The position numbers and the translations under genes are program-made. Of a stretch of 36,990 nt of DNA, positions 2,158-36,979 are shown one piece after another. The DNA comes from Jimgerdemannia flammicorona (Eukaryota). The stretch spans positions 1 to 36,990 of the forward strand of contig RBNJ01000199.1 of assembly GCA_003990765.1 (NCBI GenBank). Reading direction: 5' to 3'. Each line of letters begins with the position of its first letter. The first letter of the stretch is position 1. The notes beneath the pieces were generated by a model. It was not told the origin of the DNA and did no database searches. It worked only from the letters and a program-made list of their open reading frames with translations.

Positions 2158-2772
2158 TATAAGAGAATTACTTATAAAAGTACTATTATATAGTTCTAGA
2201 AGAGTTTTCTAGAAGTTCTGAATATTCTAAAAGACTATTTTCTTAAAATTAGGATTAATTTTATATAGAGTATATTCTCTATACTTATTAATTTTAAGAT
2301 TGAGTTGATATCTCAACTAAAGTCCTTTTTTAGACTTATTTTAGATATTTAGGATTTTTTATATTTCAGAAAGTTCAAAAAACTAAGATTAGCTTAGTTG
2401 AATTAGTATATTGTTACAGATAATATCCAATTAGAAAATTTTGTAATATAATTAAGAGTAGGATCTAATAGGATATAGATTTATTTAAGAGTAGTTTATA
2501 GATTATTAAATAGATTTATTTACTATTTATAATATTATTATACTAGGAGTAGTTTGTATGAAGAGATATTGTAGAGAAGTGTTTAAAAGTCACCTTTCTC
2601 AGTTACAATTTATATTACACATACTTTTACAATATACTTTCAAGTTGTTTATTGAAGAAAGGTACTAAGACAATAGTAAACAGTAAGTAATCTGAGATAT
2701 GTACTGAGCAGAGTGGCCCTAGTGTGTTTGACTAGCAGTAGGTGGAGAGAGATCCTAGTCTGGGGGGGGGGT

Positions 2773-4735
2773 ATGAGGGGGCTGCTGACAGGAGGATGAG
2801 AAGAGAGAGGAGATAGTATTAGAGGACAGGAGTCTGGAAGGATAAGCTTTGTAGAGATAGTGAAGGAGAGGCAGCAGATATCTGGGTTGAAGAGATGGCT
2901 AAGAAAAGGCAAGGAGATGGAGAAGTCAGTAGTTTATAGAGGAGTAGTCCTTAGCAGTGAGAGTAGTAGAGTTGAGAGAGTAGTGGTTGGGGTGAGTATA
3001 ATGGCTGATGGCGACAAGACTGCCAATCTGGAAAAAAATCCAAATGTGACTACTGATGGTGTAGCTAAACAGTAGGGGCTTAGAGAGCAGGGGAACTTGA
3101 CAAATAGTATAACAGACCTAGTGGTAGCCCTATTACTCAAAAAATCAATCTCAACATTCACAGTTATACTGTACTTCTGAGGCCTAGCAGTGATAGCAAA
3201 AATGATACTGAGGCTTATTATTAAATAGGTAGCTAGAGTAGTATTGATAAAGTTTCTAAAGGGATTACAGAGAGTAAAGGTGGGCTTTGAGGAAGCTGAG
3301 TCTTTAGAGGAGGTACTGAAGATTGGCTTAACTATTGGGGAGGTATGTGTTCCTATAGCATACTGCCTAAGATGGGATCCCAGGGTAGTATAACTGCTGG
3401 TGAAAGGAGTGCTCATAGTAATAGTAGTAGAGATAAGAAGAAGAATTGAGAAGATTATAGCAGAGTATAGCAAGGTAGTGAATATCAGCTTCAGAGTCTA
3501 GAAAGGGACCTTGCTCAGGACTAGAGATATTGACATACAGATTCAGCTGACAGGGAAGGAGACTACTGGAAAGACAAAGAACTGGTTATCAGTGATAGTC
3601 TGGGAGGCAATCTTGTACAAGGTGATGAGGGTGAAGAGGAGTGAGGAGGAGGAAGAGGAGTGAGGAGGAGGAAGAGGATTTGTTAGAAGTATTGAAAGAG
3701 CTGAGTAGTATAGTAGAGCAGTGGACAAAGGCTTAGAAGGTCTTTGTAGAATCAATATACTTAAAGATGGTGGATGGAAAGTAGATTAGAATAGACAAGG
3801 AGTAGTAGGAAAGAGCTCAGAGATGTAAGCATTAAAAGAAGTTACATACTAGCTAAGCTGAGAGATAGATCTCAGAAGGATGTGGGTGGAATAGTAGAGG
3901 TAGGGGGTGCCAAAGTAAGTATCTGGGCTAGTAAGGATAGTGAGAGTACAGGGAAGGTGGCAGAGGAGGACAGAAAAGTGACTAGTAATAATCTGTATAC
4001 TGATGGTATATTTGAGGTCTAGGAGGAGGACTGGGAGGGATTACCTATCTCTACTCCTCTTATTAGGTAAGGTCTGACTTCCTGAAGTAAAGTGGTAGAG
4101 GATGTACTAATGAGGGGGGCCCAGTGAGTACAGTTTGGAGTTCCTGAGGTAACAAATAGAGAACAAGTGGTGGCAGTTGGAGAGAAGAAACTGGTGGATG
4201 TCCTGGAGATATGAGATGAGTCTGTGAGTACTGAGGCTGATACTATGATGTTGGATGGTGGGAGACTGGTGACTCCTAGAGAGAAGGAGGTGGGAAACCT
4301 ACTTTGGATATATAGAATGATAAATAACCTAGTAGCTGAAGAGTTGGGAAAGGTGGACTTAAGAGTAATAAGTAATGAGTATTGGGTATAGATCCTACAA
4401 GAGGATGGCATGGAGCTGGCATTGAAGGCAGAAATTCTTGTGGTATATCTAGAGAAGGAAGGATATGAGATGGATAAGGAGCAAAAGGCTGAGCTAGCAG
4501 GGGTTACTGGTGAGAGGACTAAATACTGTTGGAATAAGTATTATAGATTATAACTCTGACAGGAGGCCTGTCTGGAGTACTGTGAGGAGTTTGAGAAGAA
4601 GGCAGATGGGGAGATAAATGAGCTATTGACTAGACTAGAGACTCAGAGAGCTGAAGAGAAAGAGGTGACTGCAGAACATATTCTAGACATGGTGTAGGAA
4701 GAGATGAACATGGAGTAGTAGAAATAGACTAGATA
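2773..4735 (+). pseudogene. LINE copy 1 ORF1 remnant (RRM-like region plus Glu-rich helical C-terminus); end approximate
   Basis: Seen: ATG at 2773 is equivalent to the ATG at 11033 in copy 2. It is homologous to the copy 2 fragment VRLIVGEVYVPMIHCLKWNPRVVQLLVKGV...EYGEVVDIGFRVWEGT, and carries many TAG/TGA stops. Confidence 0.65.
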
Positions 4736-4752
4736 ACACACCATATTTCATT

Positions 4753-7700
4753 ATGAATAGTACAACCAATATTTTCTCTTTGAATATAAATAAGTTACAG
4801 GGCACTTCTTGATGTAGGAACATTTTTACTTAACTGAAGATATTAGAGGCTAATCTCTTCCTCTTACAGGATATCAGGTGTGAGGATGATTTGGATAGGC
4901 TGGAATAAACAAAGAAATGGGAAGGTGAGGCAGTTTGGAAGGACAAGGTTGGAATTCTGGTCCAAAAGGGTTGAGGGGAGATACAGGAGATGAGGAGATA
5001 AGAGGATAGATTGGTCTGAGGAGAGTAGATACATATAGGTTGGGAGCTAGTTACAGTGGGCTCCTGTTACTGCTCTGCTATATAGAGTGAGTATGTGGAT
5101 TGGGTGAAGAGTCTTCAGGAGAGTGGGGTCCTTATGGAGGCTGGGGTGGATATACTTGATGGAGACTTCAATATAGTCTGAGATATACTAGTAGATAGAA
5201 AATATAGTGGAAGGGGAGCTGAGAGTAGAAGTGGAGGATTGGTGGCATGGGAGGATGTAGAAAGGCTAAGTGCTCTGGTAGATACTGATAGAGAATATTG
5301 GAGAGATAAGAAGATATACATACACTGGGCAGGGGGTCTGGAGACAAGGATTAACTAAATACTAACAGCTAGTTACTGGAGATTGAATGTTTAGAAGTTA
5401 CTAGAAGTGAAATAGTATCCTTGGTCAGATCATTAGGGGCTGTTAGGGCAGGGACATTTTGGAAGAAGTGGGGATGGGCCTGGACATTGGTGACTCAATT
5501 CCTCCTTATTAGATGATAGGATCTAGTAGAAGGCATAGACAGAAGACATTCAACTAAGGGTGGAGAGCTAGAGGCAGAAAGGTGTCCTGGTTGATGTTAA
5601 GTGGATGAGAATGAAAGCAATGGCCAGGGTTTACTAGAGTGAGGCTGGTAGGGAGACTGGGAAGCAGAGGAGATGATGGGTGAGATGGGCTTCTATTAGA
5701 CTGATCAGACTCTTAGAGGATTGGACAGGGCTAGTAATAGTGGGAGAGGAAAGAGAGGATTGGAGATTGATAAGGGTGAAAATAGAGGTTAGTGAATTAC
5801 AACAGGTACTGAGAGATGAGGAGGAGGCAAGAATATAGAGCTTAGTAGCACAACTTCATTGATAGGGATTGGAGGAAGGAGAGAGGCCCTCTAAGTATCT
5901 CATGAGAGCTCTTTAGGTGAGAAGGGTACAGTAAAGGTGAGAGGGAGTGGTTGACTCTGATGGTATACTGGTACATAGTATACAAGATATTCTTGGTTCA
6001 CTAAAGGAGTGATGGAGTGGATTATAGAGTGAGGAGGAGGGGGGAGCAGATGCTGCTGCCATTGATCAGACATTGGAGAATTGGTACTCTCCTCAAGCAG
6101 TTGGGCTAAGTGACTTAATATTGTTAGTATGAGAGGATGAGATCTACCAGATTCTTGTCACAACAACCCTGGACATAGTATCTGGAGAGGATGGTCTGCC
6201 CTGAGACTTCTGGAAGAAGATAGTAGGAGTCTCAGGATTTCTGGGTGCAATGATAGTATTGTGTGACTTTATATTACAGACAGAGAGATGGGTGGGGGAA
6301 TAGGATCTGAGGCTAGTGACACTGCTTTACAAGAATAAAGAGAGGCAAGAGAACTGGTAGAACTGGTGGCTGATTATGTTGCTGGATATAGACAGAAAGT
6401 TAGTAACTAAGGTAGTAGTTGCAAGGCTATAGAAGATGATCTAGCAAGTTCTGAGTGTTGAGAAAAGGGGCTTTATAGGAGGCTGGCTCATTAGAGATGG
6501 TACAGCTTGGATACATAGAGTTATTGAAGGGGTATGAGCCTGTAGACTAGATGGGTGATTGGTCTTCTTGGACCAAGAGAAGACTTATGACCAGGTGCAG
6601 TGAGTCTGACTGGTAAAAGTATTGGATAGAACTGGGGTACCACAACAGTTCTGGTCAGCAATGATCAGCCTACTGGAAAGGAGTAAAGCAGTGCTCATTT
6701 ATAATAGACATCACAGAGTATCATTTCTCTTAGATAGGGGAGTACTCCAGGGGGACCTGCTGTCCTCCATTCTATATGTTCTTTCTCTGGAGCCCCTAAT
6801 GGACAGAATCAGGTAGAAGATAATGAGGCTCTCTATCTTTGGAATTGGGTAGAAAGTTGGGATCTTTGCAGATGATATGGTGGTTGGTCTGAGATCTGTT
6901 ACAGATACTAAAGAGCTCAAAAAGATAGTGGAGTGGTACAAGGAGAACTCTAGAGCTAAACTCAATTGGCATAAGTGTGAAACAATAGTGTTGGGCAATG
7001 GCCTGGTGGGTGGGAATATCATCAGAACAATTGTCCCTACTGGCAAGATAGTGCAGTACTTGGATATTTATTTATCAGTATATGAGTTGGTACTTCTTAG
7101 ACTTTGGTAGGAGCAGAGGGTTAGAATCTGGGGGGAGGCTCTGCAGAGTTAGAGGGGTCACCATTTATCTCTAGCAGGGCATATCTCGATTTTGAATATC
7201 TATTGGCTACCAAAGTTATGGTATCTGGCTTATCATCTGGACTTCCCAGCCTAGGTAGTGAAGTGATTGTTGAAGCTGGCCAAGAAGTAGATCTGGGCTA
7301 GAAGAAGGGGTCAGATCAGTTGGGAGGTCTTATCCTTATTAGTGATAAGAGGAGGACTTGGGCTGGTTAACTTTCTGAAGTAGCTACACTGCTTGAGAAT
7401 ATGATAGTTGAAGAGAGTGGTGGAATTGAGAGGAGGTAGTTGGATTCTCCTATTACAGAAGGTCTGGGAGATGAGATCCTCACTAAGAGGCTTAATAGGT
7501 AATCTTCTATCATTGGTGAAGCTTTAGAAGACTGCATAATTGCAATATAAAGGCTTCTGGTGGGGAGTAGCAGAGGGGGCACACCACATTGGAATTCATT
7601 GGCAGGGGAATAAAGGAGAGGTGGCTTGGGACCCAGAGATATGGTGATGAGACTGAGTGTTGTTGAGAGGTATTCTCTTAGTTGAGTTTGACATTAGTGA

Positions 7701-8440
7701 TAGAATAGACTACCAAAGGGGACAAGACCAGGATCTGTGACCAAGCAGATGGCAGAGAGTTGGTATCAGAGAAGAGTAGAACTAGCATAGTGTGTAGGCC
7801 TAGAGTGCTAAGGTGAGGAGATAGATGCCACCAAAGTACTGGGTGGTCTGGTGGCACTTGCTAAGGAGGAATGTGATGCTCAACTTCCACTTGGATCACC
7901 TTATCAAGAGGGGTTGCTTTGACTGTGAGGAGTGCCACAATGTAGGGCAAGAAGGGGAATATATACAGATGCCTGAACATTGGCTAGGAGAGTGTAAGAT
8001 ACTTAGTGACTTCTGGCAGGCTATTAGAGACCACTTGGGGGTAGTGTGTCAGAGGGATAGTATATAGAGTTGGTGAGAAGATCTGAGAAATAGACTGATA
8101 GGGAGGAGTGGGAAAGGAGTAACTTACCTTAGGCTGGGTTTTGGCAATTTGGATGGGGCTGGCCAGTTACTGGCTATTTGTTTTTGAAAATGAGAAGAGA
8201 CTTGGCTTAGGGGACCAGTTGTTACATTGGCATGGCCTTATAGAAGACACCTTGACAGACTGGTGGCTTGGTTGGGAGCTGTAGGGTAGTTGAAGATACT
8301 ACTTAGTAGAGAAGATCTGTAGGCAGAGTAGAGAGAGGGTGAAGGTAGTAGGTGAGAAGGTGGTCTTTATTTGTGATGATACTAGAAGGAGCTCCTCTAT
8401 GGGAATCAGATAGAGAGAGAAGATGCTGTATAATTATGAA
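4753..8440 (+). pseudogene. LINE copy 1 ORF2 remnant (APE endonuclease, reverse transcriptase, zinc knuckle); end approximate
   Basis: Seen: MNSTTNIFSLN start, endonuclease-like (G)GDFN, and RT motifs GEDGLP, IMLLDIDRKL, LVFLDQEKTYDQV, GVLQGDLLS and FADD (6865-6876). C-terminal CFDCEEC...EHWLGEC. Numerous premature stops. Confidence 0.9.
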
Positions 8441-8775
8441 TAGATTAGTAATAAATGATGGAGTCCAAGTGACTATAAAAAAAAAATAAAAAAAAAAAGT
8501 ATTTAGAAGTTCTATTTATACATATCTATTTGTATCTATTTGAGTCTGAGTTTCTAAGGTCTGGAGGAGTAGGTATTTATACTAATAGAGGGCTATCTAG
8601 ACTATACTAAATATAGATATAGTACTTAGTATCTTATTGAGTCAGAATGTAGTTATATAGTATAAGTATAAACTGATATGTATATCAAGAGATCATCTGA
8701 CTGCTGAGTCAGTATGTAGTTACATCATATGAGGCTAATCTAACTATACTAGTGACTGTTAAGCTATCTATAAAT

Positions 8776-9872
8776 TTAGATGATATCTAGATAGTTTTCA
8801 ATAAGATTACTATTGATAATATCATCTTTGATAAAGTATTATCTAAGAAGAGTAGTTCTTGGATTATATCTTCTTATTTATTTATATAGTAGTAGGTTGG
8901 AACTATATCACCATTCTACAAGATGGCATTATCTGTCTCATATACTAGATAGAGTATTAGTAGGTAGAGAAAGAGTACATTATCTTTGCTTTTATCAGAT
9001 TTGTTATCTGTATACTTTCTATAAGTAATAATACTATAAGTTGCAAAGTTATAGTAAGCTAGTAGCTATGGTTCATTTCATTTATATTTAGAAGATAGAG
9101 TTATTGGTTTAATCTCAAGGGTTGTCTAGAAATATAGGTTGTATTCTTTGATCTCTTTATTATAGTTGAAGTAGTTAGATATAAATATAGATTAGTACTT
9201 ATATCAGTAATCATTATCCTAATAGGTCTTGTAGGTAATTATGAACTATTATAAGTTTATTAGTAAAGTTAGTAGAGTAATCAGGGCTAGTAGAGATTTT
9301 TAGCTAAAGATCATATTAGTATTAGAGAAATTATTATCTTTTACTTTATTATTATTGAACTAGATTATATTATAGATATTTTTTATAGTATATCCAACTT
9401 AGGGCATTGGTAGAATATAATTATCAGAGTGCAAAAAAGTTCTGTCTATAGTTTAGATATACTCAATATACTTATAGTTGAGTTCTTATACTATATTATT
9501 AATTTGGCCATAGGATAGAGTAGTAACTATTTCAGTAATAGTAACTTGAAGATAGAGAATAAAGATACTATACTTATAAAAGAGTTCTTAGTATTTATAG
9601 ATAATGAGTTTTTAATGTTGAGATATTTGAGTAATATCTATATTATAGTAATGTTCAACTATATCTTCTAGGAGATGATCAATCTGATAGTAGTTTGAAA
9701 TTTGTCTAATTTGGTGAGCTTTGCTAAATATATTTAGAGTATTCTATTAGACTTCTATAAAGTAAAGAGATACCAGGCTATAGATATTCATAAGGGGCAG
9801 AGGAGGTGTGGCTCAGTTGACAATAGTATTCCAAATGTCAGTATAGATGTAATTGTAGATCTTGGTAGTTAT
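8776..9872 (-). pseudogene. Heavily mutated copy of the LTR U3 ORF
   Basis: Seen: colinear with 32072-33169. The start codon reads ATA at 9872. TGG is retained at 9833-9831, where copy B has TAG. Confidence 0.7.
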
Positions 9873-10615
9873 AGTTATATATATGTTCAAAAGTTATAGT
9901 TATTTGTTTAGTTTATTGTAGTTCTCTATTTTAATATATCTGAGTACTTAGTATATATATATTTAGTTCTGATTAGTAAGGTTTCATTTGTGTAAATCTT
10001 ATATTCTGTAACTTTGAGTTGACTCAGCTTTGTACTCTATAACTTTGACTTGACTCAGCTTTGTAATCTTATATATAATTTCCAGATTTATTTAGAGAGT
10101 AATGTATAATTTTAGTGGCTTAGAGATTTTGTACTTATATAAACAATCAATAATTATAACTCTAGCATTATGATTGATAGATGAGCTTAGTGCTTAGAAT
10201 AAATTGAATTTTGATCTAATTTAATTCAAAGTTCAATTTAAAATAAATTTTTCAAAATTTAATAATTTAACCAAAATATATTTAAATTTAATAAATTTTA
10301 GTTTATTTAATATATCTTATAATAGAGAATATAATATAATAAAGAATATTAAATTTAGATATATTTCTATTAAGTTATTATATTTTGAATTTAAAATAAA
10401 TATTTCAAATTAAATCAGACTCTAATTTAATTCATTTGAAAATAATCTTAAATATAGTTAGTGCTCCAAATGAGCTGATTCAGATCAGATTCAAATCCCA
10501 TCCAGATCAACTTAGATGGGATTCAAATCTCATCTGGATTGATTTGAATCAATCATTGTTTTGATTTTTAAATTAGAAAATTAAATATTTATATTAATAA
10601 TTCAATAAATAATCA

Positions 10616-10848
10616 TCCAATTTTGATGATCTTGATGTTATTTGAAAGCCCTTAATGAAGTCTTTCTAATAATATCAAGAACATTGAAATTGAACCATAT
10701 ATTGCTAAGTTATCAAGAAAAATGTCTGACTTACTAATTTTGGAAATTTCTTCAAAAGAATGTTTTTCTTAATAGCTTAGCAATACATAATCCAATTTTA
10801 ATATTCTTGGTATCATTAGAAAGGTCTTATTAAAGGCTTTCAAATGAC
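10616..10848. repeat. Long inverted repeat (~105-bp arms); each arm contains a 33+13+33-bp palindrome; the right arm is completed at 16680-16700 after the LINE
   Basis: Seen: 10616-10722 is the reverse complement of 10763-10848 joined to 16680-16700. Confidence 0.85.
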
Positions 10849-13800
10849 CAGCACCTTTCTCAGCTATCATTAACATTACACACACTTTTACAACATACTT
10901 TTAAGTCATTTATTGAAGAAAGGTACTAAGGCAATAGCAAATAGCAAGTAATCTGGGGCACATACTGGACAGGGCAGCCCTAGTGCATTTGACTGGCAGT
11001 AGGTGGGGAGAGGTCCTAGTCTAGGGGGAGACATGAGAGGGCTGTTGGCAGGAAGATGAGGCAGAAGAGGAGGCAGTAGTAGAGAATAGGGGTCTAGAAG
11101 AGCAAGCTTTGTAGAGATGGTGAAAGAGAGGCAGTAGTCATCTGAGTTGGAGGATTGGCTGAGGAAAGGCAAGGAGATAGAGAAGACTACAGTTCACAGA
11201 GAAGTAGCCCTTGGTAGTGAGGGCAGTAGAGCTGGGAGAGTAGTGGCTGGGGAGAGTGTGATGGCTGATAGAGATGTGACTGCTGATGGTGTGGCTGAGT
11301 GACTGAGGCTTAGAAGGTAAGGAGATTTGGTAGATAGTGTGACAGGCCTAACAGTGGCCCCATTACTCAAAAAATTAATCTTGGTATTCATGGTGATATT
11401 GTGCTTCTGGAACCTGGCAGTGATGGCAAAAATGGTACTAGGGCTTATTGCTAAGCAGATGACTGAAGTAGCATCTGTAAAGTTTCTGAAGAGATTGGAG
11501 GGAGTGGAGGTGGACTTTGAAGAGGTCAAGCCTTTGGAGAAAGTACTGAAGGTTAGATTGATAGTTGGGGAAGTATATGTTCCGATGATACACTGCCTGA
11601 AATGGAACCCCAGGGTGGTCCAACTGCTAGTGAAAGGAGTATCTATAGTGACAGCAGTAGAGATGAGAAGGAGAGTCAAGGAGGTCATAGTAGAGTATGG
11701 AGAGGTGGTAGATATTGGATTCAGAGTCTGGGAAGGGACCTCACTCAGGACTAGAGATGTAGACATGAGGATTCAGCTGGCAGAAAAAGAAGCTACTGAG
11801 AAGGCAAGAGACTAGTCTTTGGAAATGGTCTGGGAGATAATCTTGTATAAGGTAATAAGGGTGAAGAAGAGTGAGGAGAAAGAAGAGGACTTACTAGAGA
11901 TACTGAAAGAGCTGAGTGGAGTAGTAGAGTAGCAGGTGAAGGCTTGAAGGACTTTTGTAGAGTCAATATACTTAGAGATAGTGGATAAGAAGCAGGTTCG
12001 AGTGGACAAGAGATAATGAGAAAAATCTCAGAGTTGTAAGCATCAGAAGGAGCTGCTAGCTAAGATGGAAGGTCAACCACAAAAGGAGGTAGGTGGAATA
12101 GTGGAAACAGGGGATGTCAAGACAAGTATCTGGACCAGTAAGGATGGTGAGAGTATAGAGAAAGAGATAAGAGAGGACAGGAAAGTAGTTGGTAGTGACC
12201 TGTATACTGATGGTATGTTTGAGGTCTGAGAAGAAAACTGAGAGAGATTGTTTACCCCTACTTCTCTTATCAGGTGAGGTCTGGCTTCCTAAAGTAGGGT
12301 GGGAGAAGATGTGCTGATAAAGGGGGCCCAGTAAGTGCAATTTGGAGTTTCTGTAGTAGCAAATGGAGGACAAGTGGTGGTAGTTGGAGAGGAGGAACTG
12401 GTGGATGTCCTGGAGGTGTGAGATGAGGTGGCAAGTACTGGGGCTGATACTATAATGTTGGACAGTAGGAAACTAGCAACTTCTGGAGGGAAGGAGGTGG
12501 GAAACCTACTTTGGATGTACAAAATGATAAATAACCTGATAGTGGAAGAGTTGGGAGAGGTAGACTTGAGAGTAATAAGTGATGAGCATTGGGTATAGAT
12601 CCTGCAGGGGGATAGTGTAGAGTTGGCATTAAAGGCAGAGATCTTTACAGTATATCTGGAGGAGGAAGAGTATGAGGTGGATAAGGAGCAAGAGGCAGAG
12701 CTAGCCAGGGTTAGTGGTAAGAGGGCTAAATACTATTAGGCCAAGTAATATGAATTGTAGCTCTGGCAGGCGGCCTGTCTAGAGTATCGAGAAGAGTTTG
12801 AGGAGTAGGTAGATGGGGAGATGAATGAGCTATTGGTTGAATTGGAGGCTCAGAGGGCTGAGAAAATAGAGGTGACTATGGAACATAATCTGGATTTGGC
12901 ACAGAAGGAGATAAACATAAAGTAGTAGAGAAGGACTTGATAATATACCATATTTTATTATGAATAGTACAACTAATATTTTTTCTTTGAATATGAATAG
13001 GTTACAGGGTGCTTATCAATAAAGGAACATTTTTACTTGGCTGAAGGGATTGGAGGCTGATCTCTTCCTCTTGTAGGATATCAGATGTAAAGATGATTTG
13101 AATAGACTGGAATAGACAAAGAAATGGGAAGGTGAGGCAGTTTAGAAGGGCAAGGTTGGGATTCTGATATGAAAAGGTAGAGGGGAGATAAGAGATATAT
13201 AGAGCTGGGGAGATAGATTGGTCTGGGGGAAGTAGATATGTGCAGAATGAGAGCTGGTTACAGTGGGCTTCTATTACTGCTCTGCTATATGGAGTGAGTA
13301 TATAGATTGAGTGAAGGACCTTCAGGAGAGTGAGATCCTTATAAAGACTGAAGTAGATATGCTTGGTAGAGACTTCAATATAGTCTGAGATATACTATTA
13401 GATAGAATAAATAGAGAATGGATCAAAGTAGTAGACTAGTAGTATGAGAGGAAGTGGAGAGGCTAAGTGTATTGGTGAATATGGGTAGGGAGTACTGGGG
13501 AGATAAGAGGGTATATATGCATTGGGCAAAGGGCTTGGGGATGAGAATTGATTGGATTCTGACAGCCGGCTGCTGGGGCTTGGATGTTTGGAAGTCACTG
13601 GAGATAGAATGATATTCTTAGTTAGATCATTGAGAAATTTTAGAACAGAGGCATTTTGGGAGGAGTGGGGATGGGCCTGGACATTGGTACCTCAATTTCT
13701 CCTTATTAGATAATAAGTTCTGGTAGGATGAGTAGACTGTGGACATTCAACTGAGGGTGGAGTGCTGGAGACAGGAAGGTGCCCCAGTTGGTGTTTGATA

Positions 13801-17971: not shown

Positions 17972-17973
<2 letters not shown>

Positions 17974-23500: not shown

Positions 23501-24563
23501 TGTCTTTCACGATGTTCTCATTGCTGTATCCCTCTTCAGATCGTATACCATGCACGCCTCACCATGACCAACATCGGTGCCAACATGCCACGGAGGATTT
23601 CTCAACACCACGCCCTTGGTTCCTTGTTGATTTGTTATACTTTTATCGTCGGGCGTTGTCTGACCCTGACCCACCGCCCTTTCTGCCTCCGGGAAGAAAA
23701 GTGAACGTGTCCAATTCGTGCACGTGAGATCCTGCAGATCTTTCTGGACGGAGAGTTTTGGGCCTTCGTCTTGTTTCCCCAGTATGGAGAAAATTACAAA
23801 CAGCTCGGCATATTCTTATTACCTGGAAGGACTGCAATCCTCCTGTCTCCTTGTTAGTCTTTGCCAAGTCATTTTGGTTGTGATTTTCAATGAAATAAGC
23901 CCATCGTCGCCTCCGGCGGTCTGGGAACTCGAACTCTTCTTACCGCCCGGGATTGCGACACTGAACCCTCGTCGTGCGGTATTGAGCAGGATACATTTTT
24001 GTGCTGGAGGGTTCATTGCATCGGCATTGTTTTTTTGAAGGATTTCTTGTTCGACGTCTTCCGTTTTTCTCACATAAACCCGGCGGGATTACCCGTCCGC
24101 GAACCGTGAAGCAAACAGCCGCTACCATTCTAGGACCAAGACGAGCAAAAATCACATACTCGCAGAGGCCCAACTGTCCATCACGGGAGGGGTTGCGTCA
24201 AAATCTTCAAGCATGAATTATACATTCACCTTGTCCTCACTATTCCGTTCACCAACCTAACAAGATCTAAAAATCCACCGCAATGCGATGATTTGGCCAT
24301 TTTCGAACGGCCATTCTATTGACAAATGTCAAACTTCCGATGTAACAGCAAACGTGTACGACTAGGAAAAGAAAAAAGAAAAAAGAAAAAATTAACACCA
24401 AAGTTCCATACACTTGTGGCAAGAAGACGGACTAGCACCAATCCCAAAGACCGACACATACAACCGTCATTACAGGACAACGGACCTCAGCGCATCAAAT
24501 AAGGTGCTGTCTTTGCTTTGTCCATTCCCTACCTCCACAGCATCCAGCTCATGACCGCATGCC

Positions 24564-26127: not shown

Positions 26128-26354
26128 AGTTGTTGGAAGGCTTAGGAGCAGAGAGAAAGGAGGCGGTTCCACGTCACATCTTTATATTGGTGGCCGTGAC
26201 GTCGATCAGTCACTTTGTGGACGCGCTCCTTTGAGTTTGACCAACGCCCAGAAATGTTGCAACGATAATGCTCCCAAATAGACAATCCAACACTACTCCA
26301 TGGACAAGACCCTACACCGCAAAGCAAATTCCCGTCAACCAGCGCTCTCTCGAT
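26128..26354. promoter_or_regulatory. Compact bidirectional promoter between IES2 and the ATRIP/Rad26 homologue
   Basis: Seen: 227 bp between divergent ATGs, with ACGTCA (26171), ATTGG/CCAAT (26186), TGACGTC (26197) and MCB-like ACGCG (26221). Confidence 0.6.
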
Positions 26355-29300
26355 ATGGAGGACGATGACGAATTCGGAGTCCTGGACCTGAACGACACCA
26401 TCGTGCGCGAGCTGGACTTAATTTGTACCCAGGCCATACAACATAACCAGCAGCAGCAGCCGCCGCCGAATGGCTCGCCCGTGGAAGTCGTGTCGCACGC
26501 GCCGCAACGAGGAAACGAGAGTGCAGTAGGGGATCCTGGTGGTGTGGCGGGTGTGGCAGCAAGGCAGTACACTTCGATAGGTTGGGCAGTCGACGAATTC
26601 TTTATGCACTCTCTTGAACATTTTTCCATTTAAAACCAACAGCCCTGATTAATTACATGATATATCGCAGATCACCCTACCCATACCTCATCCATTGACG
26701 ACCTGGCCCGCCTCCAAAACGACCTAGCGACGGTAAGCTGCATATCCTCATCTTCTCACCTCACACCTTTTCTTTAACCTAACTCAACTCCGCCGCTCGC
26801 ACGAGCAGCTCCTGGACACTAATCGGCGCTTGGAGAAGGACATGCAGGCCAAAGATGGCGAGATCTTCGTCGTTCGACGCAACATGATGCGCGCCGATGC
26901 GGAGAAAGACCAGCTGCGGTGCGCGATGGCCGCCTCCATAGCGGAGGCACAGCGCGAACGGGACAGTGCTAGGGGGGAGCTCGCGAGACAGGCCGAGAAG
27001 TTCAAGACCGAAATGGCATTCAAGGTATCGGAATTGGGGGGGTTTTTTTTTTGGGGGGGGCAGAGGGAGGTTGCAGCTCGTGTAGGGATGAACCCCAAGG
27101 GGAGGACGGTGCGGGGTTGGTGGTGTTGGATTTGGAATGACGTGATCGTTTTCTGTTCTTGGGATATGTTGCAGAAAGAAGAGTTGGATTCAATCATCAA
27201 GCAGCGCAACAGGGAGGCCAGACGCGAGCAAGTCAACGGCACCACCGGCGAATCGTCGTCGTCTCCAATCTTAAGCCCTCTCAAAACGAGCTCCAAGGGG
27301 AAAGGTGGGTACACTCAAACCTAACATTGGACCATTAGCATGGCACCCTCTTGCCGTATCTCACAGCCCCGCTCCCATCCACTCAAAGGGCCTGCCTTCC
27401 CAACCCTCAACACCTTCAACGAGTCTTCTTCCAAGCCCCTATTCCCGCTGCCGATTCCGGCTCCGGCCGTTCCTTCGTCGCCGCCGAGGAAACTCGTTCG
27501 ATCCGTCGCCGTCATGACTGACTTGGAACCGTCGCCTCCTCTCGAGCCGACTGTTGCCGTTGCGACCATGTCGATGCAGAGATCAGATGCGATGGACGTG
27601 GACGTGAACGGAGAGGGTGGTGAAGGTGGGGTACGACGGCGCAAGAGACGGAGGACGGGGAGGAGGCTGGTACCCGAGGCGGATGAGAGGATGGTGGTAA
27701 GGATGAAAGTGGGGAGCAGCGCTGGACGGGGTTGGTGATGCGGAAAGTAAGTCTTCTTTCGTGTTATGCTGATGATTTTTCTCGATTTATATCGTCTTGT
27801 TTTGTAGCTGATGCAGCGGCTGTTCGCAGATGTCGTTCCGGACACGGCGGCTTCGCGGCCCCATGGCAACGCCGACAACAGCGACGAACAGGATCGTCGA
27901 TCGATCCACGCGCTGATAAGCGACCGGTTCCTTATGGCTGAGAGAGATGGTACGTCTCCGTCCAATCTTCCTCTCGTCGTGTCAGACATATCTTCGCGTG
28001 ATTAAATTTTTCATTCCAATTTGTCGCCAGAACCCGTCCCCGCACACTTGCAGGCTCGCTACCACCGTCTCATGACCGGCATGCTGGACTGTCTGACGCG
28101 CGCGCTCGAGATCGAGATGGGACCCACGTTAGCAAGGTTGCTCGGGCTGGCGGAGGGTTTCCTGGGCGTGTGTCTAGAGTCACGGACGGTGAGTACCGAC
28201 TATTATTTTTTATTTATGTTGGAGAGGTAGTATTTGGCGGCGCAGGATAATACTGACTTTTTTTTTTTTTTTCCCCCTTTGTTGTTGTCGCGCGCAGTTC
28301 GCGATCTTGAAGCCAGTCATCGGTGTCGTCAGGGTTCTTGCGGCGTCGTACCCGACGTTTCGGACGTTGGCGATGGATAAAGGTGGCCGTACTGATGGTA
28401 CGAATTCATTTCATATTTTATTGTCCTATCTGTTTGATACGAGTTCTGGTGTTCATTTGTAATATGATATATCCTATATACATATGAATGACATAACCGA
28501 TATTACACTCCGCCACCTCTTCCTAGCATCCCAACCCATCGTCGATGCGTTGATATCGGTCCTAGCTGTGTACGCATCGTCGTCGTCCTCATCATTATTG
28601 ACATCGGATTCGGAGAACCAATCGCGTGAAATACCGGCAACAGGCGTCAAGTGGGAGGGCAGCAACGTCGAGCGGGCGGACGCGGTAGCTATATTGGAGA
28701 CGCTGAGGAACCTGACGTGGGGATGTGAGGTGGGACAGGCTGCAAGGTGTGTTTGAGGATTGAAATGAATGGAGGTTGACCGATTTCTCAAATATGATTG
28801 ACACTGTGTGTTTATTCGCGTGAAATTCGTCAGGCTCGAACCATTCCTGTCCACGTTCGTCACATCCCGGCTATTGAGCACGAACCAGCCCTGCCGGATT
28901 GTGCTCTACACGATCGAGTTACTGGCATCGGCGGTCGTCGGTGAGGTCCTTTCCGTCGCCGTTACATGGAGGACTCTAGAGATGAGACTTTGGGACTCTT
29001 GGTTGACCCTTTCCTATCCTGTAAATTTTGCTTCCAGACGATGCCCTCTACAAGATCGCCATGAGCCCCCTTAGCAGTCACCCGAGCACGATGGAGATGC
29101 AGCACCCGAAGCGCCCGGGTGCGATGGAGATGCAGCGGCCGAGCGCAATGGAGAGGGCGGTGCGGTTCCTGACGGAGAGGCCGGGAGACGCGACGGCGGC
29201 GGAGGTGGGCCGGACACCGAGATTTAAGTTTGGCCGGCGTGTTGGGTGGTTGTTTGCGAATACGAAGCCTGACCCATGCTCTCGTTTGCAGGTTGTTGAG

Positions 29301-30052
29301 GTCCGAGCGGCGACTCTCAGGCTCGTCGCGTGCGCGTGCGTGCAGAGTGGGCGTGAAGCAACGAAGGTGGTTGAGTGTGCAGCGATGGTAAGCAGGGTGC
29401 GTCCGATGGATGGGGGAATTTATGTGATAAACCATAGAGGAATCTGTCTCTGACGTTCGTCCCCATGGCCAGGTCCTCCCAAGAATCCTGGACGGGCTGA
29501 GCACTGAGCTAGAAGCCCTCGCGACGCGCCTAGACCCGCCGAAAAAGAGGTACGTTCTAATTGGCACGCAATTGTTCTTCGCTTCTCCACGATCGCGAAG
29601 ATTAATTATCACAATGCTCCCAAAAAAAAAAAAAAAAAACAAAAAAAAAAACGGTACAGTCTCCAGTTCGTCCGCGACGCCGTCCAACTGCTACATCACT
29701 TCTTCCTACGCCACCCAAACCTGTATGACCGGCTCAAAGGCGCCACGGCCCAACGATTGTTTGTCGCAATGACCAGATTGTCGTTTGCGAGGGAGATGAG
29801 GTTGAAAGAGCTCGAAGGCATGTCGGGTGAGTTTGGGTGGGTACGTTGGACATTGGGGTTAAATTGTCGGGCGAGGTTGCATGAAAGGAGAGGTGAGAGT
29901 TTGGGGGAACTTGTATCAGAAATCTCAAGTGTGTATTTATTATTTTTCAATTTCCATCCGGGTGCGTCATAGATCTTGCACATGACTTGGTCGAGGCCGT
30001 CATCACGCTGGAGGAGGAGGACGCCGTGGCGAGCTTGTTCAAGGTTGAATGA
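26355..30052 (+). CDS. rad26: ATR-interacting checkpoint protein (ATRIP / Rad26 / Ddc2-like), multi-exon
   Basis: Seen: acidic N-terminus MEDDDEFGVLDLNDTIVRELDLICTQA, coiled coil KDGEIFVVRRNM...EMAFK, helical middle exons, and C-terminus LFVAMTRLSFARE...DLAHDLVEAVITLEEEDAV. Clear exons include 26355-26580, 26671-26732, 26809-27024 and 29973-30052. Several internal junctions are uncertain, and an in-frame upstream ATG exists at 26268. Confidence 0.8.
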
Positions 30053-30561
30053 GCGGTTGGGGTGAACGATTTACCGGTTGGGAATTCGAGTGTCGTGCCG
30101 AGAAGGGAGTGGATTTCATTTTCTCGGCACATCGACTTTTGTAAATACACCCAATCAATTTAGATGCATTTGGGCTTACTAGACTGGAGGATTGCCTGCA
30201 GGACCGCGACCGCGACTTGTAGAAGGAAGCTCGTTCGTGACGAATATTAGTTATTTAGAGGGAAGGAGGAAGCGGAAAACTCCATCTTGCGCGAATCGAA
30301 AAAGACGAGCTTGTACCAGCCATGGTAGATACCAATTGTTGAACACTCTAGTCAAGCTCTTTAGATAAAAATATCTAGGATAATATTACTATCTTTAAAT
30401 TTAAATAGGTTGAATAAGTTATTTAGTGTAACAGTTGATCCAAATTAGGAACAAGAATCAGGGGAATAGATATTTGATTATAATACTTGAATCCAATTCC
30501 TGATATAGTATAGTATTATAGTTAGCAGTCATCTGATCTCACAGTTGTACAATTTGTATAA

Positions 30562-30620
<59 letters not shown>

Positions 30621-31395
30621 GTTCCTTGGACTTTACCATTTATTAACAGTCTATCAAAGATAAGTATAGTACCCTATCCCACTACTCAATCTCTCTAGAG
30701 GGGCCCTTCCTCATATTTTTATATTTGAATACTATTTTACTACTTACTACTATTACTCTCCTCTCACTCTGTTCACAAATTTTCTTTACCAAATAACACT
30801 AATGACCTCCCTGTAGACCTCATCCCAGTTACCAATCTATCAAGATATCCACCATCAACTCTTTCTACCTTGTCAGCTGCTCTCTTAAACCCAAATACCT
30901 CTTTTTTTCAAAAACAAATAGCCAGTATCTAGCTAGCCCCACCCATATAGCTAAAACTCAACCAATAGTGAGTCACTCATTTCCAACCCCCTCTATCAAT
31001 CTATCTCTCAGATTCTCCCATTAATCTCTTTCACCATTCCCCCTCCTCATAACATCCAATCTATTCTCAACTACTAATCAAAAGTCTCTAAGTATCTTAC
31101 ACTCTCTCAGCCAATGTTCTGGTATCTATACAAACTCCTCTTTCTGTTCTATATTATAATACTTCTCACAATCAAAGTTTCCCCCCTCTATAAGGTGGTC
31201 TGAACAAAAGTTGAGCATAATATTTTTTCTCAGTATATACCACCAAACCACCCAGAACTTAGATAATAGCTATTGCTATATCTCTGCACTTCAGGTCCAA
31301 ACTCTATTCTAGTTCCACCCCTCTCCAATACCTACTATCTGCCAGCCACTAAGCCATATATCCTATCCTAACCCTCTCTAGTACTTAACCTCATC

Positions 31396-33457
31396 TGTAA
31401 GAGGGTTACTTTTTAGGGTAACTATTACGTAGTTCTGGAAGGGTTTTCTGGAGGTTCTGGATATTCTGGAAGACCATTTTCTTATAGTCAAGATCAATTT
31501 CATATGGAGTATGTCCTCTATGCTTATTGATTTCAAGATTAGATTGACGTCTCAACCAAAGTCCTTTTTTGGACTAGTTCTGGATGTTCAGGATTTTCTG
31601 TATTTTAGGAAGTTTAAAAAACTAAGACCAGCTTAGTTGAATTGGTGTATCGCTGCAGACAATACCCAATTAGGAAATTTCATGATGGGGATAGGATTGG
31701 GACCTAATAAGGAGCAGATTTACTTAAGAGTAGTTTGAGGGTTATTAAATAGGTTTATTTGCTATTTATGATATTACTATACTAGGAGTAGTTGTATAAA
31801 GGGATATTGTGAGGAAGTGTTCAGGAATGTTCTTGTGTGTTCGAGTCTGAGATTCTGAGATCTGGGGGAGGGGGTATTTATACTAGTGAGGGACTATCTA
31901 GACTATGCTAGATATGGATATAGCACTAAGTGCCTTGTTGAGTTGGAATACAGTCACATAGTACAAGTGTGATCTGATATGTCAAGAGATCGTCTGACTG
32001 CTGAGTCAGTTCACAGTCACGTCATACAAAGCTAATCTAACTATACTATGACTGCTAGGCTATTTATAGGTTTAGGCGCTGTCTGAGTAGTCCTCGATAA
32101 CATCACCATTGATGACATCATCTCTGATGAAGTAGTCGTCTAGGAAGAGTGGTTCGCAGATTACTTCTCCTTGTTTGCTGAGGTAGTAATATATTGGGAC
32201 TTCGTCTCCATCCCATAGGATAGCATCATCTGTCTCATAGGCTAGATAAGGTATAGGTGGATGAAGGATGGGTGTATTGTCTTCACTTTCATTGGATTCG
32301 CTGTCTGTATACCTTCTATAGGTTATAGCACTATGAGTTGCAGGATTGTAGTAAGCTGGTGGTTGTAGTTCATATTGCTCATACTCAGGTGGTGGAGTGG
32401 TTGGTTCGATCTCGAGGGTTGTCTGGAGGTACAGGTTGTGTTCTCCGGTCTCTTCATTATAGTTGAAGTAATCAGGAGTAAATGCAGGTTGGTATTCGTA
32501 CCAGTGGTCATTGTCTCAATAAGTCTCATATGCAGTTATGAACTGTTGTAAGTTCATCGGCAAGGTTGGCAGAGTGATCAGGGTTGGCAGAGATCCTTGG
32601 CTAGAGGTCATGTCAGCATCAGAGGGATCATTGTCTTCTGCTTCATCTTCATTGAAGTGGATTATATCGTAGATATCCTTCATAGTATATCCAACTTGGG
32701 GTATTTGCAGGATATGATCATTGGGGTGTGAGAAGGTTCTGTCTGTGGTTTCGACGTACTTGAGGTACTTCTGGTTGAGTTCTTGTATCATGTCATCGAT
32801 TTGGCTGTAGGACAGGATAGCAACCATTTTGCTGATAGTGACTCGGAGGCGGGGAATAATGGTACTGTACTCATAGAAGAGTTCTCAATGTTTGCAGGTG
32901 ATAAGCTTCTGGTGTTGAGACATCTGGGTAATGTCTGTATCATGGTGGTATTCAACCATATCTTTCAGGAGACAGCTGATCTGGTAGTAGCTTGAGATTT
33001 GTCCGATTCGGTGGGTCTTGCTAAGCATGTTCAGAGCATTCCATCAGGCTTCCATGAAGTAGAGGAGTGCTAAGCTATAGATATTCATGAGGGGCAGAGG
33101 GGGTGTGGCTTGGTTGACAATGGCATTCTAAATGTTAGCATGGATATGGGTATAGATCTCAGTGGTCATGTTTGTGTGTTTGGAAGTTGTAGTTGTTGTT
33201 TGTTTTAGTTCTCTGATTCGACACGTCTCAGTGCTTGATATATATGCATTTGATCCTGATTGGTAATATTCCGTTTGTATAAATCTTGTATTCTGTGACT
33301 TTGTATTGACTCAGCTTTGTATACTGTAACTTCAGGTTGACTCAGCTTTATGATCAAGCAGGTGATTTCCAGATTTGTTCAGAGGTCGCATGTGATTTCA
33401 GTGGCTTGTTCAGAGGGTGACATGTAATTTCAGTGGCTTGGAGGTTGTGCACTTACA
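31396..33457 (-). mobile_element. Solo LTR copy B, 2062 bp, the less mutated copy
   Basis: Seen: TGTAAG...CTTACA inverted termini and a perfect 5-bp TSD TCATC (31391-31395 / 33458-33462). On the minus strand, TATAAATA near 31882-31875 is followed by AATAAA at 31759-31754. Established: TG...CA ends with a 5-bp TSD are LTR retrotransposon hallmarks. Confidence 0.9.
32072..33169 (-). pseudogene. 365-aa intronless ORF of unknown function inside the LTR U3, broken by four transition-type stops
   Basis: Seen: one continuous frame from ATG 33169 to TAA 32072 (MTTEIYTHIHANI*NAIVNQATPPLP...DVIEDYSDSA) with no frameshift. The internal stops are one TAG and three TGA, restorable to TGG and CGA. Confidence 0.85.
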
Positions 33458-36400
33458 TCATCACTAATATCAAAGTCAATTAGGAGAGTACTCTCTAACA
33501 ATACTCAATTCCATCTCTACATTACTGAGCCCTATGGTATCTCTCCTTCAGCCTTCTATTAGTGAAGATCAATATAGTGTACTCTATCTACTACTCTCTA
33601 CCAGAAGCCCTTATACTGCATGCACTCACTGTTCTGAAGCCCAACCAAGAACAGTATATCTTCTATAGAGCCCCTTGGTAAGAATTTCCTCTCTCAGACC
33701 TTTTTCATCAGAGGAACCCAGCTACCACCCCTCAGTTCCATAGCTCTCTTCAGCTATCAAGCTCTTAGACAATACAGCCTCTTTGAGAAGTCAACCAGCC
33801 TAAGGCCTTCTCTAGCTATTAGTAATGACAAAATTTTTCAGCTAATCTGACTCCATCTCTTAGCTCAGATCTAACCTTTGGCTAACTTCAATAGTCTCTT
33901 TACTACCTAGGCTAGAAAGTTCAGATAATATACTAAATACCATAGCTTTAATAGCCAGTAGACATTCAAAATTGAAATACAACTCACTAAGAAGATGTAG
34001 TGGCCTCCTCAGCTCTGCAGAGCCTCCTCCCAAATAGCTATCTGCTACTCTCACCAAGGTCTCAGTAGGACTGATCCATAGACTAAAAGATAGATGCCTA
34101 AGTACTATACAGTATCTCCAGTAGAGATAATTGTTCCAATGACATCCCCTTCTATCAGACTATTGTCCAACACCATTATTTCATACTTATACATACCAGT
34201 TAAGTTTAGCCCCAGAGTGTGCCTCATATCACTCCACTATTTCCTGGAGTTTCTCAATATCAGTGATTGATCTCAGGCCAATCACTATATCATCTGCAAA
34301 GGCCCTAACTTTCTACACAATTCTAAATACCAAGAGTCCTATTATCTTTTGCTAAAATCCTATCTATCAATGGCTCTAAAGATAGAGTATACAAAATAAA
34401 AGACAGTAGATCTCTCTGAGGAACTCCTCTATCCAGAGGAAATACTACCCTCTGATGTTTATTGTATATGAGTACTGCTCTACTTCCTTTCAGTAGACTG
34501 ATCATTACTACTCAGAACTGCTGAGAGACTCTAATCCTATTTAGTATCTTTACTAACCAGACCTATCTGACATAGTTATATACCTTCTCCTAATCTAGGA
34601 AGACCAATCTCTCATTCAGTTCACAGGCTTGAGTCTCTTCAATAATATTATAAACCTAAGCTATATTATCCCTAATGAGCTAGTTCCCTATAAAATCTCA
34701 TTACTCCTTACTCAAGACTTACTGGGCCACCTTCTGCAGCCTTACAACCACTATCTTGATGATCAACTTTCTGTCCATATCTAGGAGTATAATAGGTCAC
34801 CAGTTATTCCAGTCCTCCCTCCTATTCTTGTCCTTATATAACAGTGCTACCAGCCTCAGATCCTGCTCTCCCACTCACTTCTCTGACTATAATACCAAAT
34901 TGCAAAGTGTCATTATCTCTTCCAGCACTCCAGGGACTTCCATTATCTTCTTCCAGAAGTCTCAGGACAGACCATCCTCTCCTGGTGCTATGTCTAGTAT
35001 AGTTGTAATAAGAATCTGGTGAATCTTCTCCTCCTGTACTGATATAATCAAGCTACTAAGCCCATCTACTTATGGTGAGTGCTAATTCTCCAAAGTATGT
35101 TCAATAGTGGTAGCATCAGTCCCACCCTCTTTCTCACTCCACAAACCACTTCATCTCTCCTTCAGCAAGCTTAGAATATTTTATAGACCATATATCAGCA
35201 GACTATCAGAATCTAGTACCCCCTCCCATCTCTGCCTCACTCTCCTCACCTGAAGGATCCTTGAGAGATACTTAGAGGGCCTCTCTATCTCCTCTAGCCC
35301 CTGCCAGCATAGCTATATAGCCAAACTTCACACCCATATCTCCTCCTCTCTCAATACTTGTTATAACTTAGTGATCTCTAGCTTAGCTTGCATCAATCTC
35401 TAGTTCTCTACCCTCTCCAAGATCAAAAGACCTGCTCAATTTTCCTGAAGCCAGGTCAATCTAGTAGAAGCTCAGGTTATCCTCCTCTTCCTCTGTCTTC
35501 CTGCTATCTTACCAGCCTCATCTTAGTAAACCCTAGCAGTCTCCTTCAACCTCACCTATTGAACACTAACTGGGACACTCTTATGGACCCAACTCTCCAC
35601 TTTTCACCAAATGTTCTCAGCCCAATTATCTCATAACTCCTTCTTAGCTAACAAAGAGGAATTGAGATACTAATGTTCAGGCCTATCCCTACTTCCCCCA
35701 AACCACCCATGCCCTAATAAGCCTTAATAGTCTAACTATAGACAGACTTCCAGACATCTAGACCCCAGTAATTGGCTATCAGCACCCAGTTAATTCTAGT
35801 CTTCAGACCACTCACCCAATAGGTATAGATCCTCCTATCTCCCCACATTGCCCATCCAGCATCTACTAAGGAACTAAGTTACTCTACCTCCTCCCAATTC
35901 TTCAGACCACTACTCCTGCTCTCTGCATTTCTCCCCCCATCTGTCTTGTCCAACTGTGCCAAGCAAACTATATTGAAGTTCCCTCCAAACACCTCTACTC
36001 CTGTCTCTGTAAGTACTCCACTATCTAAAAGACTATTAATTCACTCTATATACTTGCTCCTGATCACAGGACAGTAGCAAGATCCAACTATAATCTAGAC
36101 TAATACCACTCTCTCTAAACCATATGATTTTCCCAGTTTCTACTTTCACATATTTCTCCTCACCCTTTCTATACTAGTAGCCCAATCTTGCTATTTCAGA
36201 CTGCTACTCTACCCCATTCTCTTGTCTACTTCTATTAATCAAGATTCTCCTCATATCATACATTCTATAGAAGAAAGAGATCAGCCTCTAATCTCTTTAA
36301 CCAAGTGAAAATGTTATGTTACCTTCTAGCACCCCACAGGCTATTTATATTCAATGAGAAAATGTTAGTTATACTATTTATAAGAAATAATGTTAAAATA

Positions 36401-36979
36401 GATGCATCTACTTTACAACTCTATGTTTACTTTCTCTCTAGCCAAGTCTAATCTATACTCAGTAGTAGCTTCTGCTCTCTCAACCAGCTTAGCTTCCAGT
36501 TCACCCAAAAGCTCATCCATCACTATATTATTCTTCAACTCTATTTCCTCCCAGTACTTCAAATAAGCCTCTTGCCAAATTTCCAATTCATGCCTCTGTT
36601 CTCACCAGAAGACTGTATGCTCTCTAATAGCCACCACCATCTCTGCCTTCCTTACAACATCTATCTCATAACCCTCCTCATCCAAATATACTGTCAGCAC
36701 CTCTTTCACCAGAGCCTCCACAATACCATCTCTCTGCAGAATTCTTATCCAGTGCTCCTCACTGATAACTCACAAGTCTATATCTCCCAACTCCTCAGCC
36801 ACTAAGTTGTTCATTACCTGGTATAGCTACTGCAAGTTCTCAATCTCCTTGCCCCTAGGTATTGCTAGTCAGCTAGCCCCAAGTATCATAGTGTCTGCCC
36901 CAGTACTCACAGACTCATTCCACTTCTCCTCAGGGATATCTACTAGCTCCTCCTCTCTAATCTCAACTATCTACCTCTC

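Follow-up and report, generated by a model that had tools for sequence, protein, structure and literature searches.

In RID-dependent repeat-induced point mutation (RIP), C:G pairs of repeated DNA are converted to T:A on both strands and the products become TpA-rich, AT-rich and filled with stop codons; in Neurospora the cytosines of CpA are mutated far more than those of CpT, CpG and CpC. Neurospora additionally has a RID-independent, heterochromatin-linked C-to-T mutation, which needs DIM-2. In basidiomycetes such as Microbotryum, a hypermutation of transposons at CpG (TpCpG) was reportedly described by Hood et al. in 2005. Here, a stretch of 36,990 nucleotides from Jimgerdemannia flammicorona (contig RBNJ01000199.1, assembly GCA_003990765.1), a fungus of the Endogonales, Mucoromycotina, was analysed; this whole stretch is called the window below. 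Nested retroelements, recognised by self-comparison and by reading of their junctions, fill 1.5-18 kb and 30.5-37 kb of the window, and a gene block lies between the two nests. It was concluded that the retroelements had undergone C>T mutation after their insertion and that the unique DNA was spared.

RID was reported only from Pezizomycotina in the accessible text of PMC9963178, where DIM-2-like homologs were given for Endogonales and Glomeromycota. Phycomyces blakesleeanus was described as methylating its transposons at CG and CHH, with no enrichment at CHG, in the available part of PMC11258239. RIP outside Dikarya was suggested for Entomophthorales, including Zoophthora radicans, from window-based indices and with major caveats by the authors themselves (PMC11105155, available text). 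RIP signatures were stated not to have been detected in Mucoromycotina in the accessible text of PMC8647823, and a kingdom-wide screen, as far as the available part of PMC12543289 goes, concluded that RIP-like signatures are unique to Ascomycota and labelled J. flammicorona 'no_rip' in its Table S14. No account of RIP-like mutation in Endogonales came up in full-text searches of the literature.

Directional transitions in the retroelement copies

The copies compared were two solo long terminal repeats (LTR A and LTR B) and three long interspersed nuclear elements (LINE1, LINE2 and LINE3). LINE1 splits LTR A (2158-10139), and LTR B splits LINE3 (36990..30567, minus strand). Transitions made up 85-89% of the differences between copies, namely 442 of the 495 differing columns among 1957 aligned for the LTR pair (the other 53 were transversions) and 1129 of 1334 among 5854 for LINE1 and LINE2. 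When the letters were recoded as purines and pyrimidines, identity rose from 79.0% to 97.5% between the left part of LTR A and 31395-31821, from 73.2% to 96.1% between its right part and 31840-33407, from 76.6% to 96.0-97.3% between LINE1 and LINE2, and from 67% to 89.5-90.2% between LINE3 and either of them. The same recoding, applied to look for hidden homology of the AT-rich spacers, gave nothing new.

Transcript-like contigs of this organism, derived from other copies of these families, were available from two sequencing runs, X1 and X2. Over a compared stretch that included 4 kb of unique DNA, transitions accounted for 562 of 626 (X1) and 473 of 525 (X2) variable places, or ~90%, and the A/T state was in the window 364 versus 198 times (X1) and 277 versus 196 times (X2). 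Both runs behaved like transcriptomes (HSP20 depth up to 78,000, spliced introns) and are uninformative on DNA copy number; the stretches of LINE1 and LINE2 that they do not cover carry no meaning.

The direction of the change was G:C to A:T, as read from target site duplications (TSDs), the younger LTR copy, the reversion of stop codons in LINE1 and fragments of related family members whose frames are open. LTR B carried C or G where LTR A carried T or A at 368 places, and the reverse was seen at 74 (binomial p=6e-48). The termini of LTR A read TA...TA where those of LTR B read TG...CA. Among 39 TSD positions four mismatched, every one of them G/A: TGAAC/TAAAC at LTR A, AATGAC/AATAAC at LINE2, AAGTG/AAGTA at LINE1 and a second G/A in the LINE1 TSD. 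LTR B indicates that G came first at AAGTG/AAGTA; its sequence differs at the second LINE1 mismatch, where it is uninformative. The mutation thus postdates the insertion of the elements.

Further, C or G was put back into LINE1 wherever any copy in the window keeps C or G. As a result, 78 of its 122 in-frame stops reverted, 58 to TGG and 20 to CAG, CAA, CGA or CGG, and 44 stayed stops; the restored codons included 33 TAG from TGG and 10 TAG from CAG. A first-pass annotation, made from the letters of the window, had pointed to directional transitions between LTR copies, to the altered LTR ends, to the G/A mismatches of three TSD pairs, to Trp and Gln codons of a LINE turned into TAG and to adjacent genes that stay rich in CpG; each of these features was recovered in the counts given here. 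The restored LINEs contained 38-40% G and 15% C, in agreement with a near-intact relative (L001; 39.2% G, 14.7% C). This relative, with apurinic endonuclease (APE) and reverse transcriptase (RT) domains and 3 stops in 1515 codons, was the one true relative among 212 pattern matches of a metagenome scan. At ~65% nucleotide identity it was too distant for site-by-site polarisation and was used for composition and domains only.

An exhaustive protein search returned four short fragments with open frames that stem from further copies of the family (P0131, P0136, P0153 and P0171; 42-63% identity), and word-based searches with the LINE RT region gave only relatives at 22-26% identity. Single-step codon differences from the fragments to the window, counted as G>A plus C>T against A>G plus T>C, were 116:19.5 for LINE1, 98:18 for LINE2 and 142:15 for LINE3. 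Polarisation by majority rule over the three LINE copies, which gave an apparent 110 A>G changes each in LINE1 and LINE2, was dropped, since G>A arising independently in two copies makes the third look as if it had undergone A>G; estimates of independent loss in two copies and comparison with outside copies were used in its place.

Base composition (GC content and the ratio of observed to expected CpG, CpG O/E) served as the control for DNA outside the nests, and by this control the C>T mutation is restricted to transposons and unique DNA is spared. CpG O/E was 1.08 over 18200-30500, and on crossing either nest border it jumped from 0 to ~1.1 over a distance of some 500 bp. A stretch of the gene block without open reading frames (non-ORF, 20500-24499) had a GC content of 0.40-0.49 and CpG O/E of 0.94-1.37. 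Two introns were seen in RNA contigs, one with 40-49% GC and CpG O/E ~1, the other (88 nt) with 38% GC and CpG O/E 0.41. Since unique non-ORF DNA and one intron stand at 40-49% GC, the neutral equilibrium would not be AT-rich.

The cytosines that survive followed a graded series. The share of remaining C found in CpT was 23% in the genes; in LTR B it was 43% on one strand and 31% on the other, and it climbed to 58-75% in LTR A and to 74-77% in the flank at 1501-2151. In this flank (1501-2152), which has no CpG, 32 of the 43 remaining C lay in CpT and 27 of the 35 remaining G in ApG, whereas the gene block has 23% and 22% of them there. The flank resembles what this decay would finally leave behind, and probably it derives from an element of far greater age in which mutation is nearly complete. 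A survivor of the CpG, CpC or GpG type was not seen in it.

Sequence context, strand and RIP indices

The loss of cytosine depended strongly on the following base. In LTR A the observed losses were 52/78 at CpG, 158/246 at CpA, 62/181 at CpC and 42/239 at CpT (p=2e-28); the respective fractions were.48,.26,.19 and.08 in LINE1 (p=5e-32) and.50,.20,.18 and.11 in LINE2 (p=1e-24). LTR B had lost 15/78, 18/246, 17/181 and 13/239. Independent-loss estimates, which allow for sites gone in both copies and whose assignment to contexts partly presupposes the direction of change, were.70 (CpA),.38 (CpC) and.19 (CpT) for LTR A,.33,.23 and.10 for LINE1, and.27,.22 and.12 for LINE2; for LTR B they were.65 (CpG),.21,.13 and.06. 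The order CpG > CpA > CpC > CpT was therefore found in LTR A, LTR B, LINE1 and LINE2, in LTR B only after the correction for hidden sites. The odds ratios of CA against CT were 8.4 (LTR A, p=2e-26), 3.8 and 2.1. Within CCT, the C was lost at 30 of 53 sites of LTR A; this high loss explains the GG>GA changes noticed earlier, which are real. CHG and CHH contexts lost cytosine equally (.39/.39 and.18/.18), and a CHG-specific loss, looked for in the copies, was absent.

These values bear on ordinary ageing, by which methylated CpG would decay, as it does in many basidiomycetes and animals, and the rest would drift slowly and neutrally toward AT, with no special process at non-CpG sites. CpG was indeed the most depleted context, LTR A and the LINEs having lost it completely (O/E 0.00-0.03; LTR B 0.38, genes 1.08), the younger LTR B as observed had lost CpG at 15/78 versus 5-9% elsewhere, and the older copies were more AT-rich, which fits a dependence on time. 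However, the changes were not limited to CpG: ~80% of transitions, and 285 of the 341 scored C>T losses of LTR A, fell outside it. The estimated non-CpG losses of LTR A stand against only 53 transversions in 1957 columns, the 3'-neighbour effect is strong, and the composition of unique non-ORF DNA and of one of the two introns (CpG O/E ~1) speaks against AT-directed drift. Nor does the CpA signal come from CpG sites hidden as CpA, because the restored ancestor has too few of them (~87 CpG-context cytosines versus 174 CpA losses in LTR A). We regard ordinary ageing as improbable. The same figures separate the locus from hypermutation of the Microbotryum type: transposon CpG is wholly lost and genes keep CpG in both, but most changes here are non-CpG and no 5' T is needed (ACG lost at 18/21, TCG at 26/39).

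The effect of the 5' neighbour was small and inconsistent: whichever of the four bases preceded the cytosine, and on whichever strand, the loss lay at 0.34-0.51. DNA methyltransferases read the 3' neighbour of the target cytosine, and AID/APOBEC enzymes read the 5' neighbour. Per-site rates were equal on the sense and antisense strands, and neither strand-coordinated runs nor clustering by density was detected (runs-test z +1.35, -0.38, -0.87 and -0.96). It could be supposed that the copies arrived already mutated, through an AID/APOBEC-like enzyme acting on the cDNA or through RNA editing before reverse transcription; every affected element is a retroelement, and the LINE sense strand is strongly skewed (31% G, 12% C). 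This is very hard to reconcile with the absence of a one-strand bias, of clustered runs and of 5'-neighbour specificity, with the same G/A changes in the TSDs, stretches of the host's own DNA that insertion duplicates, and with LTR A having gone on mutating after LINE1 split it. The skew itself is native, being already present in L001, and editing during retrotransposition is considered highly improbable.

That skew was also weighed as mutational damage in its own right and was ruled out as such by the equal strand rates after divergence and by the same skew in the relative (L001:1-4546, 39% G and 15% C). It was there before insertion and so belongs to the active lineage itself. The sparse C of the LINE sense strand was concentrated in CpT (CT O/E 2.0). 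One idea is that a long-term C>U or C>T pressure on the sense strand lies behind its poverty in C.

The classical RIP indices were applied with thresholds of TpA/ApT >= 0.89, a substrate index, (CpA+TpG)/(ApC+GpT), <= 1.03 and a composite RIP index (CRI) > 0. LTR A passed all three (1.28; 0.48-0.75; +0.53 to +0.79). The LINEs passed TpA/ApT (1.07-1.18), and their three main segments failed the other two (1.17-1.29; -0.22 to -0.01); the 752-bp 3' piece of LINE3 (30593-31344) was at threshold (substrate 1.03, CRI +0.16). LTR B failed all three (0.87, 1.22 and -0.35).

By its spectrum, the locus is not a case of canonical RID-type RIP. It shares with that process the C:G>T:A transitions confined to repeated DNA on both strands, the TpA-rich, AT-rich and stop-filled products, the preference for CpA among non-CpG sites and the positive indices of LTR A. 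It differs in the order of contexts, in which CpG comes first rather than among the least, and in the failure of the LINE main segments and LTR B at the substrate and composite indices. The reading of the first-pass annotation as RIP-like therefore stood in part: the transposon-confined, post-insertion, non-CpG C>T mutation with CpA above CpT was upheld, but the spectrum is not that of Neurospora or RID, CpG is hit hardest, and the classical indices are positive in LTR A only, not in the LINE copies as wholes or in LTR B. The same annotation named dense non-CpG methylation as an alternative, and the likelihood of this is no smaller.

True RIP might still operate by another route, as a homology-sensing deamination of both copies tied to the sexual cycle. 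It would have to use the RID-independent heterochromatin route with a DIM-2-like enzyme, since RID is reported absent outside Pezizomycotina. In its favour are the mutation of repeats alone with unique DNA spared and sharp borders, the mutation of both strands, the TpA-rich products and the three classical indices of LTR A, together with the DIM-2-like homologs reported from Endogonales, the DIM-2-requiring route of Neurospora and the composite-index signals in Zoophthora, outside Dikarya. Against it, the context order, with CpG first and CpT last, is unlike the RID-type spectra known to us, run-wise strand bias was absent, and the LINE main segments failed the substrate index. Moreover, RIP of Neurospora stops below ~80% identity, but the copies here have reached 67-77% identity and one flank 12% GC. 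Divergence past ~80% identity is fitted better by a process dependent on time or chromatin than by a homology-limited one. True RIP by this route is thus judged unlikely.

A proposed methyltransferase-type mechanism

We proposed that silenced transposons were mutated after insertion by cytosine deamination of the DNA-methyltransferase type, with an outcome that resembles RIP; judged from the sequence comparisons, this explanation is on balance a probable one. A methyltransferase-type agent is suggested by the specificity for the 3' neighbour, by the DIM-2-like enzyme reported in the lineage and by the non-CpG methylation of transposons in a relative. In the proposed sequence of events, a cytosine-5 DNA-methyltransferase-type system would target the chromatin of silenced transposons, combining maintenance methylation of CpG with a DIM-2-like enzyme that acts in all contexts. 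Methylated or enzyme-bound cytosines would then deaminate to thymine over time, either spontaneously or with assistance of the enzyme. The expected end products would be CpG-free, TpA-rich and stop-laden relics drifting toward 12-25% GC.

The proposed mechanism resembles the DIM-2 route of Neurospora in relying on an enzyme of the DNMT1 superfamily, in reaching all CpN, in acting on silenced repeats and in dispensing with RID, and genes of the DIM-2 type are reported in Endogonales. Phycomyces belongs to the same subphylum, and its methylation covers whole transposon bodies in CG and non-CG contexts and is stronger on retroelements; unlike the present case, it is methylation rather than mutation, and CHH but not CHG is used, whereas CHG and CHH are lost equally here (PMC11258239, available part). 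Zoophthora likewise provides a RIP-like hint outside Dikarya, in a genome inflated by transposons and encoding proteins with DNA-methylase domains (PMC11105155, accessible text). It belongs to a different phylum, and there the hint comes from window indices only, whereas aligned copies, polarity and a context spectrum were used here.

A genome-wide hint is given by the supplement of PMC12543289. For J. flammicorona its available part counts 23 k-mers whose enrichment in non-coding sequence exceeds 2-fold (repeats, 0; both, 0), and TATA reaches 4.0-fold in the non-coding sequence. That screen asked for k-mers more frequent in repeats than in non-coding DNA, a criterion that cannot be triggered where, as in this genome, nearly all non-coding DNA consists of repeats. 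The 'no_rip' label consequently does not exclude heavy mutation in J. flammicorona. RIP has been shown experimentally in Leptosphaeria maculans. The same non-coding-only pattern (45/0/0) is listed for L. maculans in the accessible table of PMC12543289.

Several points weigh against the proposed mechanism. The rule used for restoring C and G presupposes the direction that it serves to describe, and the independent checks of polarity are smaller; among these, the open-frame fragments are biased to less-mutated copies. In LTR B as observed, the non-CpG contexts did not differ significantly (p=0.3). The spacer at 10145-10835 is free of CpG yet lacks the CpT-survivor signature (base after C: A 32, C 10, G 0, T 28; CRI -1.92 over 10140-10835) and so falls outside the decay series; it may be natively AT-rich or belong to another kind of element. 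The whole data basis is one 37-kb window with two copies of the LTR and three of the LINE, to which a single metagenome relative and the four protein fragments are added. Finally, DIM-2 of Neurospora prefers CpT according to the available text of a 2026 review (PMC13297926), the opposite of the sparing of CpT found here.

Layout of the window and meaning for the Endogonales

The features of the window are collected in Table 1. All LINEs are sense on their own strand, with TSDs of 13 and 16 bp, and the LTR TSDs are of 5 bp; LINE2 sits 0.7 kb beyond LTR A. The marks of a solo LTR, that is, TG...CA termini, a 5-bp TSD and no internal region, were found intact in LTR B and in mutated form in LTR A. 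RVT_1 was found in LINE1 and LINE2, and Exo_endo_phos was detected only in the near-intact L001 and not in the mutated copies of the window.

Table 1. Features of the window by position (TSD, target site duplication; CRI, composite RIP index; O/E, observed/expected)
Feature	Position	Strand	Details
AT-rich flank, 12% GC, ~650 bp	1501..2152	none	LTR A insertion target; CRI +0.6 to +0.68
LTR A 5' TSD TGAAC	2153..2157		partner TAAAC at 10140-10144
Solo LTR A, left part	2158..2589	+	21% GC; starts TA, not TG; CRI +0.79
LINE1 5' TSD AAGTGTTTAAAAG	2577..2589		partner AAGTATTTAGAAG at 8497-8509; 13 bp; two mismatches, both G/A
LINE1, full-length-like non-LTR retrotransposon	2590..8496	+	poly(A) tail; 122 in-frame stops; RVT_1 E=5.8e-18 (+ frame); CpG O/E 0.01
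Solo LTR A, right part	8497..10139	+	26% GC; ends TA, not CA
AT-rich spacer, 20% GC, CpG-free	10145..10832	none	remaining C not CpT-enriched
LINE2 5' TSD AAGGCTTTCAAATGAC	10833..10848		partner 16664-16679 reads ...AATAAC; 16 bp; one mismatch, TG/TA
LINE2, LINE1 family (77% identity)	10849..16663	+	poly(A) tail; RVT_1 E=2.1e-21; CpG O/E 0.03
Further CpG-free repeat, another family	16680..18000	none	CpG O/E 0-0.07
Unique gene block, internal control	18200..30500	none	GC 49.5%, CpG O/E 1.08, TpA O/E 0.73
HSP20 gene	19998-20555	+	inside gene block
Weak PAPA-1 (IES2-like) match	24470-25117	-	inside gene block
LINE3, 3' part	30567..31390	-	poly(A) ~50 nt (poly(T) on + strand); CpG O/E 0.00
Solo LTR B	31396..33457	+	TG...CA ends; perfect TSD TCATC at 31391-31395 and 33458-33462; GC 41%, CpG O/E 0.38
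LINE3, upstream part	33463..36990	-	continues past window end; 67% identity to LINE1 and LINE2

The HSP20 protein was 99% identical to a protein of J. flammicorona, and the next named relatives were Glomeromycotina; the earlier guess of an early-diverging fungus was right, the organism belonging to the Endogonales, Mucoromycotina, and not to the Pezizomycotina. An imperfect tandem duplication of ~100 bp (76-81% identity) was seen at 18663-19229, in an ORF-rich and GC-rich stretch just upstream of HSP20, and splicing near it was visible in transcript contigs.

Short inverted repeats were noticed by eye around 10480-10560, within the AT-rich spacer. The repeat at 16680-18000 was not significantly similar to the LINE 5' end, and a fourth LINE 5' end considered at ~16730 was rejected, its local score of 16 not being significant against a shuffled maximum of 15. 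Over 16708-17371 several transcript contigs of other copies aligned, and their differences were mostly A>G and T>C relative to the window. Long A/T homopolymer runs at 17899-17983 and 30551-30621 matched on opposite strands; the second is the poly(A) tail of LINE3, and the first, which lies where the first nest ends, may be what is left of the tail of a further decayed LINE.

Transposon transcripts were present over 2100-17400 in both transcriptome-like runs at depths of tens to hundreds, and most of them stemmed from other copies with 80-95% likeness. Transcription of some family members thus continues despite the decay.

The pattern described here points to a mutagenic genome defence so far undescribed for Endogonales. 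A transposon-restricted C>T mutation in all contexts in Endogonales would place mutagenic genome defence in a broader set of lineages, and the process would be a natural system for such mutation running without RID. It would bear on how a genome of ~240 Mb with >77% repeats (PMC10386755, available text) keeps its transposons dead. Standard repeat annotation and age landscapes of the Kimura type will misjudge these families, because copies 96-97% alike in purines and pyrimidines are only 73-79% alike in four letters. We advance, tentatively, the further possibility that Endogonales run an active RID-independent mutagenic defence, a DIM-2-like, heterochromatin-guided system that would deaminate all CpN in the order G>A>C>T. 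If the defence reading were true, kingdom-wide screens would miss such mutation in this genome, and RIP-type mutagenesis would be older than Dikarya or would have evolved twice.

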